From a virus (taxonomy: Duplodnaviria > Caudoviricetes): 64,000 bases of DNA. The DNA is taken from the IMG/VR virus record IMGVR_UViG_3300010352_001543. The stretch is one strand, 5' to 3'. A model generated the notes under the pieces. That model was not told the DNA's origin. It saw nothing but the letters and a program-made list of their open reading frames with translations, and did not search any database. Positions 2,519-19,634 of this stretch are shown here, one piece after another. The translations under genes and the position numbers were made by a program. How positions within the stretch are numbered: the stretch's first letter is position 1; each line of letters begins with the position of its first letter.

Positions 2519-3886
2519 ATTGTAAGTCGATTCTGTAATTTTTTGTTTTAATATATACTTTATAAGGAAAACATAATTAGTATATCAGAAAAATGGTCCA
2601 AGTAGAACAACATATTGTTAAAAAATCCAACAGCAGTGATTGGCAAGTGATTGATCACTTAGCATTACTATCTAAGAACTTGTACAACACCTGTCTATGG
2701 ACTATCAAAAATCATTTTGAAGCAACCGGAAAGTGGATGCGCTACAACGAAATGTACCGAAAGTTTTATGATGAAAAGAATCCTTCTTTCATTGCTCTAC
2801 CAGCAGCGACTGCACAACAAATTATGATGGTGATGGATAGGAACATGAAGAGCTACTTCGCCTTACTAAAAATGTATCGAAAGAACAAAAAGTCTTTAAA
2901 CGGATGCCCTAAGTTTCCAAAGTACAAAGATAGCATTAAAGGTAGAAATATAATTATTTTTACTGCTGAAAATCAAGCAAAACTACAAAAGGATGGAACT
3001 ATCACTTTTCCAAAGAAAACTGGGCTAAGACCACTAACAACTAAAATACCAGCTGGAAGCCTAAAACAAGTAAGAATAGTGCCACAATCAAGCTGCTATG
3101 TTATTGAAGTTATTTACGAAAAAGAAGTAGTACAAGCATTTCCAGAAAATGATTCATGGTTGTCTATTGATTTAGGAATCAACAACCTAATGACATGCTT
3201 TGATACTGTTTCATCTAAACCAACAATCATCACAGGCAAGCCACTTAAATCCATCAACCAATTTTACAACAAGAAACATGCTAAATTACAATCAATTCTA
3301 CAAAAACAATACCCTAAACGACATAAGTCAAAGAAATTAAACAAACTAACAATAAAACGAAACAGAAAAATTAAGGACTACCTCCATAAGAGCTCCAGGT
3401 TTGTAGTCAATTATTGCTTAGAAAGTGGTATCTCCAACATTGCTATAGGTTACAACGCTGAGTGGAAACAAAATGTTTCACTCGGCAGCCGTATCAACCA
3501 AAACTTTGTTCAAATTCCTTTTCTAACACTAATAAATCAAATAGAATATAAAGCAGCGCTGCTTGGCATTTCAGTAACAAGGAACGAAGAATCCTACACC
3601 AGTAAGTGCTCAGCAATTGATTTAGAACCAGTTGAAAAACATGACGTTTATGCCGGAGAGCGTAAAAAACGTGGTATGTTTATTAGCGCTAAAGGTACTA
3701 AAATCAATGCTGACTTAAATGGAGCCATCAATATTCTTCGAAAGGTAGCTGGAGATAAGGAACCTGTAATGACTGTTGTAAAACAGTGGGTGCAAACTCA
3801 ATCCAGTAGAGGCCAAGTCGTTTGGCCGTTTCATGTTAACATGAATAAATAGTTTTTAAAGAGCATTCTTTTTAAGCTAATACGAT
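2519..3886 (+). mobile_element. tnpB-only IS200/IS605-type element, copy 1
   Basis: Left end (TTTTATTGTAA.TCG.TTCTGTAA...) and right end (...CTAATACGAT) shared with copy 2; no transposase in window; boundaries approximate. Confidence 0.75.
2593..3852 (+). CDS. tnpB: RNA-guided endonuclease TnpB
   Basis: IDLGINNL (RuvC-I), EESYTSKCS, INADLNGAINI (RuvC-III). Confidence 0.93.
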   Translation: MVQVEQHIVKKSNSSDWQVIDHLALLSKNLYNTCLWTIKNHFEATGKWMRYNEMYRKFYDEKNPSFIALPAATAQQIMMVMDRNMKSYFALLKMYRKNKKSLNGCPKFPKYKDSIKGRNIIIFTAENQAKLQKDGTITFPKKTGLRPLTTKIPAGSLKQVRIVPQSSCYVIEVIYEKEVVQAFPENDSWLSIDLGINNLMTCFDTVSSKPTIITGKPLKSINQFYNKKHAKLQSILQKQYPKRHKSKKLNKLTIKRNRKIKDYLHKSSRFVVNYCLESGISNIAIGYNAEWKQNVSLGSRINQNFVQIPFLTLINQIEYKAALLGISVTRNEESYTSKCSAIDLEPVEKHDVYAGERKKRGMFISAKGTKINADLNGAINILRKVAGDKEPVMTVVKQWVQTQSSRGQVVWPFHVNMNK

Positions 3887-10654: not shown

Positions 10655-11991
10655 AATCGGTTCTGTAAATTTTTGTTTTAATATATACTGTATAAGAAAA
10701 ATATAAATTAGTTATACACTATAATGGTCCAAGTAGAACAACATATAGTTAAAAAATCCAACATCAGAAAGAGTGACTGGCAAGTGATTGATCACTTAGC
10801 ATTCTTGTCTAAAAACTTGTACAATACTTGTCTATGGACCATCAAAAATCATTTTGAAGCAACCGGAAAGTGGATGCGATACAACGAAATGTATAGAAAG
10901 TTCTATGACGAGCAGAATCCTGCTTTCTTTGCTCTACCGGCAGCGACTGCTCAGCAAATTATGATGTTGATGGACAAAAACATGAAGTCTTACTTCGCCC
11001 TGCTAAAAATGTATCGAAAGAACAAAAAGTTATTGAATGGCTGCCCACAGTTTCCTAAGTACAAAGACAGTGTCAATGGAAGAAATGTTGTCATTTTTAC
11101 TTCTATTCAAGCAAGGCTACAAAAAGATGAGACAATTAATTTTCCAAAGAAAACTGACCTAAGACCACTAAAGACTAAAATTCCAGCTGGAAGCCTGAAA
11201 CAAGTAAGGATCATTCCTCAATCGTCCTGCTATATCATTGAAGTTGTCTATGAAAAAGAAGTAGTGCAAGCATTTCCTCCTAATGATTCCTGGTTGTCTA
11301 TCGACCTTGGAGTCAATAACTTAATGACCTGTTTTGATACTGTTTCCAACAAACCAACAATAGTAAACGGTAAACCACTCAAATCCATCAACCAATTCTA
11401 CAACAAGAAACATGCTAAACTACAATCACAACTACAAAAACAGTATCCAAAACGACATAAGTCAAAAAAACTAAATAAATTAACAACAAAAAGAAATCGT
11501 AAAATTAAAGACTACCTCCACAAGAGTTCCAGGTTTGTAGTCAATTATTGCTTGGAAGCAGGCATCTCCAACATTGTAGTAGGTTACAACGCTGAGTGGA
11601 AACAAAACGTTCAGCTCGGCAGTCGCACCAATCAAAACTTTGTTCAAATACCTTTTCTAACACTAATAAATCAAATAGAATACAAAGCAGCACTGCTTGG
11701 CATAACTGTTGTAAGGAACGAAGAATCCTACACCAGTAAGTGCTCAGCGATGGACCTTGAACCAGTTAAAAAACATGACATATTGCGGTAAGCGCATAAA
11801 GCGCGGCATGTTTATAACTGCTAACGGAACTAAGATCAATGCTGATTTAAATGGAGCAATAAATATTCTTCGAAAGGTAGCCGGAGATAAGGAACAAATT
11901 ATTAAATTTGTTCAAACTCAATCTAGTAGAGGTCAAGTCGTTTGGCCGTTTCATGTATGCATGAATAAATAGTTTTTAAAACTAATACGAT
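10649..11991 (+). mobile_element. tnpB-only element, copy 2
   Basis: Ends homologous to copy 1; boundaries approximate. Confidence 0.75.
10724..11972 (+). pseudogene. tnpB: TnpB with 2-nt deletion near 11780; RuvC-III out of frame
   Basis: Close paralog of 2593..3852; KHD|YCGKRIKRG is split across two ORFs. Confidence 0.85.
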
Positions 11992-19183: not shown

Positions 19184-19407
19184 AAAAAACGAGGATAGTT
19201 AGAGGGTTTTTAACCTCATCGACATGTTGGTCTTTCAGGCCAAGTTGTACACGGGAATTCCTCACAACGCGATCGAATACAACCGGTCTTGCTCTCTCAT
19301 TAGCTTAGTGAACTTTTTCGTGTGTTCACTTTCCTATCCTCTGAACCGCTAAATTAAGTATGCTGATATGGTGATTTAAACCAAACTCGCCTAAAATAGA
19401 GACGGCC
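19184..19407 (-). ncRNA. unassigned structured RNA
   Basis: GC-rich non-coding island with several helices, promoter motif upstream and U-tract at end. Confidence 0.6.
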
Positions 19408-19420
19408 TATAGTATATATT

Positions 19421-19439
19421 ATCTACAATAGTAGAAATT
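19421..19439 (-). CRISPR. solitary Cas12a-type (V-A) repeat AATTTCTACTATTGTAGAT
   Basis: Matches the mature Cas12a crRNA handle; no second repeat or cas gene seen. Confidence 0.55.
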
Positions 19440-19528
19440 TTTTAAGAAAGATTATTAAAGAAGTTATAATAGATGAATCAATTATATAATCAAAATAACC
19501 CTCTAATTATATATTTAAAATTAATATT

Positions 19529-19634
19529 TGCTCCATGACAAGGAATCGAACCTTGAACTGAAATGTAATCTTTCTCCGTTTGTCATACAGAGAAATCAAA
19601 CAAAAACAGGTTATCCATTTATAACTCATGAAAC
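19529..19634 (-). ncRNA. tRNA-like RNA with long acceptor and anticodon arms
   Basis: T-arm CAAGG-TTCGATT-CCTTG, D-like GTTAT/ATAAC, 9-bp acceptor-like stem. Confidence 0.6.

Follow-up and report, generated by a model that had tools for sequence, protein, structure and literature searches.

The 64-kb stretch of phage DNA analyzed here (the window) has a G+C content of about 30%, and its gene content includes a helicase and homing endonucleases. Downstream of its tRNA array lies an island of noncoding RNAs, whose neighbors on the same strand are the 20 tRNAs of the array (22944-20226), small open reading frames (ORFs), and a sigma factor. The small neighboring ORFs matched no known acr and no other informative family, and the 88-aa neighbor falls into a single protein cluster. 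A weak match of a 464-aa protein to the Pfam family Por_Secre_tail gives a faint hint of a Bacteroidota-type host. A single sibling phage was found, the Logan contig L110, whose sigma factor is 91% identical and which shares ~87% nucleotide identity with the window over 9.2 kb. The features of the island are as follows.

19184..19407, minus strand: structured noncoding RNA of ~220 nt with multiple helices, headed by P2; a P1 transcript would read into it
19408..19420, minus strand: P2, AATATATACTATA, a full copy of the promoter-like motif that abuts the 3' end of the handle
19409..19502, minus strand: segment of ~94 nt (leader, handle, and second promoter motif) that is missing from L110 in the alignment with that contig
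19421..19439, minus strand: Cas12a (type V-A) crRNA 5' handle, an exact 19/19 match, AATTTCTACTATTGTAGAT
19440..19445, minus strand: TTAAAA, the sole part of the upstream flank shared with some natural V-A repeats, an upstream extension of at most 6 nt
19447..19503, minus strand: A/U-rich leader between P1 and the handle, with a hairpin of its own in both the minimum-free-energy and the centroid prediction
19508..19515, minus strand: P1, the upstream copy of the promoter-like motif AATATATA, 68 nt upstream of the handle
19529..19634, minus strand: tRNA-like RNA directly upstream of P1, conserved in L110
19771..19787, minus strand: window counterpart of the L110 handle site, with ~10 nt fewer and no handle

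A preliminary description of this DNA had read a Cas12a handle from the minus strand at 19439-19421. The exact 19-mer is found there, in the minus-strand order CTTTCTTAAAA-AATTTCTACTATTGTAGAT-AATATATACTATAGGCCGTCTC, with a TCTAC/GTAGA stem and a TATT loop. We identify AATTTCTACTATTGTAGAT as the standard 5' handle of mature type V-A crRNAs; a direct check was possible, since genuine arrays from more than 120 species genomes have repeats that end in this 19-mer. The repeat had also been described as a lone one with no cas gene in the window. It gave a single match in the 64 kb even when up to 3 mismatches or loops of 3 to 5 nt were allowed. All ORFs in the window are 696 aa or shorter, so a Cas12a-sized gene is absent, and the statement about cas genes holds for genes of that size.

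Solitary repeat units (SRUs) are defined by an intergenic match to a known CRISPR repeat that retains the hairpin, lies on a mobile element without associated cas genes, has no second repeat, whole or partial, in the surrounding 100 bp, and is expressed from a promoter within 250 bp upstream, in a host with the corresponding CRISPR-Cas subtype. At this locus there is one repeat match in 64 kb and no array; positions 19421-19439 are phage DNA overlapped by no ORF, and the handle lies on the strand of all neighboring genes. The motif AATATATA, a presumptive promoter, is 68 nt upstream on the same strand, and the handle hairpin is predicted with a probability of 0.86-0.98. A repeat is matched in part: only its 3' 19 to 25 nt are present, and the remainder of the 36-nt repeat is missing. 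When the 17 nt upstream of the handle were compared with the 5' parts of 123 natural repeats, the best identity was 8/17. A comparison with host V-A repeats had been proposed earlier; against the natural V-A repeats used here, it turned out well for the 3' 19 nt (19/19) and poorly for the upstream 17 nt (best 8/17).

Promoter-like motifs and the predicted transcript

P1 was the motif that the preliminary description had placed ~70 nt upstream of the handle; AATATATA occupies 19515-19508, at a distance of 68 nt, and is preceded by TTTA at 19519-19516. Copies of AATATATA number 19 on the minus (coding) strand of the window versus 5 on the plus strand. Most lie 15 to 45 nt ahead of start codons, the leader of the tRNA operon is also preceded by the motif, and the motif is often extended to AATATATA(C/G)TATA. 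From its likeness to the 8-bp T4 late promoter, we infer that AATATATA is a phage promoter. Elsewhere in the window, near-identical regions of ~45 nt (TTATTGTAA.TCG.TTCTGTAA.TTTTTGTTTT) precede the promoter-like motif at 2550-2562 (+) and 10680-10692 (+), forming duplicated regulatory cassettes ahead of the plus-strand ORFs 2593-3852 and 10724-11791.

The second copy in the island, P2, makes up the first 13 nt of the would-be spacer. The earlier observation that this spacer starts with the phage's own promoter motif, and that its first 13 nt recur twice without a TTTV PAM, was reproduced: AATATATACTATA recurs exactly at 22541-22529, preceded by CTCA, and at 46362-46350, preceded by AAGT.

Between P1 and the handle, no strong or convincing terminator was found. 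The transcript predicted from P1 has a self-folded leader and a handle hairpin flanked on both sides by single-stranded, A/U-rich linkers, with stem pair probabilities of 0.86-0.98. Nucleotides 1-13 after the handle are predicted to be unpaired (0.72-0.96), and nucleotides 14-18 are predicted to be tied up in the first helix of the resident structured RNA. This ~220-nt RNA has an 8-bp closing helix, GAGGATAG/CTATCCTC, together with a T6 run; its fold z-scores were -1.9 and -1.4, and it is ~95% conserved in L110. In Rfam only the tRNAs found a match, with none for the handle region or the flanking RNAs. Toward its 3' end, the ~220-nt RNA contains AACCCTCTAA (19208-19199), which is complementary to the leader segment TTAGAGGGTT (19506-19497).

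The tRNA-like RNA at 19529-19634 has a well-formed acceptor stem, a hairpin resembling a D arm, and a T arm of canonical form (GGTTCGATTCC), but where a tRNA has its anticodon arm there are ~50 nt of unrelated helix. Neither ARAGORN nor Rfam called it.

The island in a sibling phage

The same island is present in L110, between the 88-aa ORF and a DUF3008 gene. At the site of the window handle, L110 reads TTTTAAATATATAATATAAAGCCGTCTC, in which a single promoter motif leads straight into the structured RNA; the ~94 nt of the window are therefore an extra segment. This segment is flanked by the direct repeat AATATATAAT / AATATATACT, within which its boundaries are ambiguous. On this alignment the handle cassette is an indel, and the two-taxon comparison fits insertion and deletion alike. 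The preliminary description had raised Cas12a cleavage as a step that matures the RNA downstream. Because L110 retains that RNA, with its own promoter motif, and has no handle there, the handle is not needed for maturation, and we rejected this reading.

L110 has a handle of its own at another position in the island. The sequence AATTTCTACTATTGTCGAT, an 18/19 match, lies ahead of the tRNA-like RNA, at L110 4533-4551. Its stem is broken by an A-to-C substitution midway along the 3' arm (the GTCGAT variant), and its predicted hairpin probability is below 0.09, versus 0.86-0.98 for the window copy. When the flanks of the two handles were compared (80 nt upstream and 60 nt downstream), no similarity above that of shuffled controls was detected. 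Since the flanks are unrelated beyond the handle, the handle alone was gained or kept twice in one lineage. At the same time, because L110 is without the window's copy and its own copy is stem-broken, the trait is dispensable and may be decaying in the lineage. Conservation in relatives, which had been suggested as a check, thus fails for the copy at this site and holds for the presence of a handle in the island, 18/19 and elsewhere.

We estimated chance with a first-order Markov model of the window. Under this model, the window should hold 4.6e-6 exact copies of the handle, and 3.4e-4 if any AATTTCTACT-N2-4-GTAGAT is counted. Across a scan of very many windows, one such match could still be chance. 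The second handle, 18/19 in the same island of L110, where 2.7e-6 such matches are expected in 640 nt, excludes that explanation. On these counts, the element is a genuine CRISPR-derived solitary V-A handle.

Other searches for relatives added little. L106 is a 100% identical copy of the window phage, and all retrieved copies of that phage were identical. Megablast and blastn searches of GenBank phages with the island gave nothing useful, and scans of IMG/VR with protein patterns for the DUF3008 protein, the sigma factor, and the 464-aa protein returned no syntenic relative. Contigs L105 and L107-L109 were discarded as relatives, having only the DUF3008 domain in common and no synteny. A match of a JGI metagenome to a 21-mer of the structured RNA was dismissed as a single chance match inside an unrelated coding region. 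IMG/VR scans for the 3' end of the tRNA-like RNA, the would-be spacer, and the extended repeat gave 0 matches each.

The tRNA array is highly variable between these ~87% identical phages. L110 967-4079 holds 6 tRNA genes and several extra ORFs, versus ~20 tRNAs in the corresponding window region 22675-20196.

The 19-mer in other viruses and in cellular arrays

The exact 19-mer occurs in at least 104 IMG/VR contigs, and in at least 100 of these, representing at least 61 distinct contexts, it is a single copy. Among the matches listed, 23 of the 61 contexts have a stable hairpin and a T-run within 70 nt and look, from this arrangement, like self-contained small RNA genes; the window element, unlike them, has no terminator of its own. 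At six loci among the matches listed, a co-oriented tRNA or tRNA-like gene is found no more than ~100 nt away.

Several viral copies were seen in other settings. The Methanosarcina virus MetMV carries an exact Cas12a handle (MK170447.1, 14857-14877), and Leptospira LE1-type phages carry a 23/24 copy (KF114879.1, 64616-64639; KF114880.1; KX656785.1). No annotated feature lies under the match in MK170447.1, KF114879.1, or KF114880.1, and KX656785.1 is wholly unannotated. The MetMV and Leptospira copies are V-A Racr candidates in cultured phages. In a large family of gut virome contigs from IMG/VR, a hairpin repeat ending in GGGTTGTGGATTGAAAC is followed after ~14 nt by an exact V-A handle and then by a hairpin and terminator. 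The repeat ending in GGGTTGTGGATTGAAAC looks like a type I/III (Cas6-type) repeat, and the family appears to encode a two-headed decoy RNA. Its members are L003, L009, L021, L032, L034, L044, L046, L049, L050, L057, L064, L068, L070, L073, L078, L080, L084, and L085, with variants in L008, L014, L017, L022, L040, L058, L076, L082, L091, L094, L096, and L097. Two further IMG/VR contigs (L035, 4613-4673, and L051, 4628-4686) have two V-A handles 23 to 24 nt apart. These are bare-handle mini-arrays without the 5' part of the repeat, and they recall multiplexed Cracr arrays (bioRxiv 10.1101/2024.10.29.618823).

In cells, true arrays with repeats ending in the 19-mer were found in more than 120 species genomes, several of them metagenome-assembled genomes from sludge or digesters. 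Most are Bacteroidota, in agreement with the earlier statement that V-A systems occur in this phylum. Across the cellular repeats the 19-mer is constant and the 5' 17 nt vary freely; because the 5' parts vary so freely among arrays, the 19-mer is the shared functional part. Since the 17 nt upstream of the window handle resemble none of the natural 5' parts, the phage copy is, by this comparison, the minimal Cas12a-binding part common to repeats rather than the full repeat of one host. A comparison of 1570 spacers from 120 V-A loci with the window gave no convincing match.

Candidate functions and known systems

The best reading of the element, to which we assign a probability of roughly 0.55, is a solitary repeat unit acting as a Racr-type RNA anti-CRISPR decoy. 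A decoy or candidate Racr had already been proposed in the preliminary description. As far as sequence goes, that proposal stands: the match is exact, intergenic, and co-oriented, with a promoter-like motif upstream and a predicted hairpin; L110 has an independent copy; and the 19-mer is widespread as a solitary element in viruses. With these features, the element is an SRU/Racr candidate.

The decoy would work as follows. A cassette of ~94 nt bearing the 3', Cas12a-binding part of a V-A repeat would have been inserted between two copies of the promoter-like motif. Transcription would begin from P1, near 19501, and yield an RNA that starts with the hairpin of the A/U-rich leader, continues through an unpaired linker and the handle hairpin into the resident ~220-nt RNA, and ends at the terminator of the latter (~19184). 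Host Cas12a would bind the handle and probably cut just 5' of it. The RNA that it then carried would have sequence of the phage itself in the guide position, part of it held in a helix, and less Cas12a would be left for crRNAs directed at the phage. P1 is presumably an active promoter with transcription running through the handle, and the host is presumably a member of the Bacteroidota with a V-A system whose Cas12a is bound and inhibited.

The handle might instead have no present function, being either an old CRISPR-derived decoy or a passenger picked up by recombination at the promoter repeats. The absence of the window's copy from L110, the broken stem of L110's own handle, and the apparent loss of ~10 nt from the window at that handle's site all fit such a relic, as does an element with neither a terminator of its own nor acr neighbors. 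Direct repeats of the promoter motif also allow such a segment to be gained or lost by a neutral route. We nevertheless consider a relic unlikely. In an island that differs by ~13% between the siblings, the window copy is flawless at all 19 nt, the unpaired AAUU and the loop among them. It is in sense orientation behind a promoter-like motif with its predicted hairpin accessible, and the occurrence in one lineage of two handles whose flanks are unrelated speaks for selection on the handle itself. A palindrome unconnected with CRISPR, serving as a protein-binding operator upstream of P2 or as an RNA processing signal and resembling a handle by coincidence, is highly improbable. The handle does sit directly upstream of a promoter-like motif, and TCTAC-N4-GTAGA is a small inverted repeat of the kind that regulators bind. 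However, the 19/19 identity spans the nonpalindromic flanks and the loop, where the model predicts 4.6e-6 copies; the L110 handle is not beside a promoter motif; other copies of the motif have no such palindrome; and L110 has the same structured RNA without a palindrome there.

Other readings give a role to the sequence that follows the handle. The preliminary description had considered a hijacking crRNA; this reading found no support. The putative spacer consists of the promoter motif of the phage itself, continued by the 5' end of the resident RNA, and the spacer-target search proposed earlier, which covered IMG/VR and ~800 kb of V-A loci, found no PAM-flanked full target. The handle and the exposed first ~13 nt (AAUAUAUACUAUA) could still form a crRNA-like RNA of the Cracr type, steering Cas12a, without cutting, to a PAM-flanked partial match in the promoter of cas12a or of another defense gene and so shutting down expression in addition to sequestering the protein. 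CracrVA1 has the same makeup of a single repeat-like unit and a spacer-like stretch (bioRxiv 10.1101/2024.10.29.618823), and the predicted pairing (nucleotides 1-13 free and 14-18 helix-locked) would leave a natural short guide. The 13 nt are nonetheless the phage's own promoter motif, present at the handle-less site of the sibling, and were not acquired as a guide. In the ~800 kb around 120 V-A arrays, TTTV followed by the first 9 nt occurred once, versus 0.8 expected, and TTTV followed by 10 nt never occurred. No host solitary repeat with a similar spacer-like part was found in the 120 V-A loci. A guide-dependent repressor is therefore doubtful in our judgment, more so than a relic. We give still less credence to a variant in which the handle is placed so that the late-type promoter motif serves as an exposed 13-nt guide, retargeting Cas12a, without cutting, to TTTA-flanked copies, one of which would be the cassette-less allele of the locus in siblings. 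If true, the element would not be a plain decoy but a means of using hijacked Cas12a against other phages or for self-regulation.

Least probable, along with the chance palindrome, is a one-guide weapon or homing-like cassette that uses the adjacent native sequence as a guide against phage genomes lacking the cassette. In those genomes the target would follow a TTTA PAM, and the carrier would be protected by AGAT in place of the PAM. TTTA does precede the motif in L110 and at P1 in the window, in exact register with the handle end, and virus-borne mini-arrays directed against relatives are known (PMC6858448). Against this, the L110 site offers 8 matching nucleotides, a mismatch, 4 matches, and then a 1-nt bulge and a mismatch, and would escape cutting. 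Scans of IMG/VR and a JGI metagenome turned up no fully matching allele without the cassette, TTTV is expected by chance at 3-10% in T-rich regions upstream of promoters, and guide nucleotides 14-18 are predicted to be paired. The reciprocal test also fails, with TTGC preceding the window counterpart of the L110 spacer. The idea of a weapon against siblings had been raised on a MAFFT alignment and was downgraded after direct reading of the L110 sequence.

If the element acts as the decoy that we favor, RNA mimicry of the Cas12a guide extends to large phages of Bacteroidota-type hosts, which would make such mimics simply by placing the minimal 19-nt handle in strongly transcribed noncoding RNA operons and not as stand-alone genes. 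The comparison with the sibling shows that handles are rapidly gained, decay, and are lost within one 640-nt island, which would make it a small natural record of an arms race. Because the handle is common to Cas12a systems of many phyla, such elements would be cheap, broad-range inhibitors, and they would be of practical interest for the control of Cas12a tools.

Solitary viral repeats are established RNA anti-CRISPRs, as the preliminary description had stated: they inhibit CRISPR-Cas by sequestering Cas proteins (Camara-Wilpert et al., Nature 2023, PMC10651486), and three V-A solitary repeats, RacrVA1-3, inhibited MbCas12a (PMC10651486). Like RacrVA1-3 and other viral SRUs, the window element is a lone, intergenic repeat look-alike on a phage, with no further repeats nearby and no Cas12a-sized gene in the window; it keeps the repeat hairpin, predicted here, and within the 250 bp upstream, where those units have a promoter, it has a motif that may serve as one. 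It differs from them in comprising only the 3' 19 to 25 nt of a repeat; the published SRU search demanded matches to known repeats (PMC10651486). Unlike RacrVA1-3, it does not form a small RNA gene by itself but is spliced into a resident noncoding RNA operon between two copies of a phage-specific promoter motif; for termination it would depend on the RNA that follows, and it has no acr neighbor.

With CracrVA1, a viral RNA resembling a crRNA causes Cas12a to shut down the promoter of its own gene (Liu et al., bioRxiv 10.1101/2024.10.29.618823). Ten consecutive nucleotides of CracrVA1 match the TTTA-flanked cas12a promoter and lead to binding without cleavage, and such partial (~10-nt) PAM-flanked matches suffice for this outcome (bioRxiv 10.1101/2024.10.29.618823). 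For a Cracr, the promoter matched would be that of a host cas or toxin gene. The window element shares with CracrVA1 a single V-A repeat-like unit that is conserved in its 19-nt handle and trailed by a short spacer-like stretch left exposed. It departs from CracrVA1 in that this stretch is the phage's own promoter motif and no terminator comes right after it. In host V-A loci, CreR and repeat-like RNAs likewise turn a stand-alone V-A repeat into a crRNA-like RNA (Shmakov et al., bioRxiv 10.1101/2023.03.03.530964; bioRxiv 10.1101/2023.03.10.532045). Those RNAs, however, reside in the host cas locus and regulate cas genes, whereas the element described here is on a lytic-type phage with no Cas12a-sized gene in the window.

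Virus-borne mini-CRISPR arrays also place a repeat on a virus without cas genes and rely on host Cas (Medvedeva et al. 2019, PMC6858448), but they hold acquired spacers between two repeats, fully matching rival viruses (PMC6858448). The window has one repeat with native adjacent sequence, which has no match in IMG/VR and agrees with the L110 site for 8 nt in a row. The solitary-repeat decoy is thus a trick already known from other phages. Particular to the present case is a handle that lies inside the noncoding RNA operon of a large phage, is bounded by promoter-motif repeats, and is turned over between siblings.
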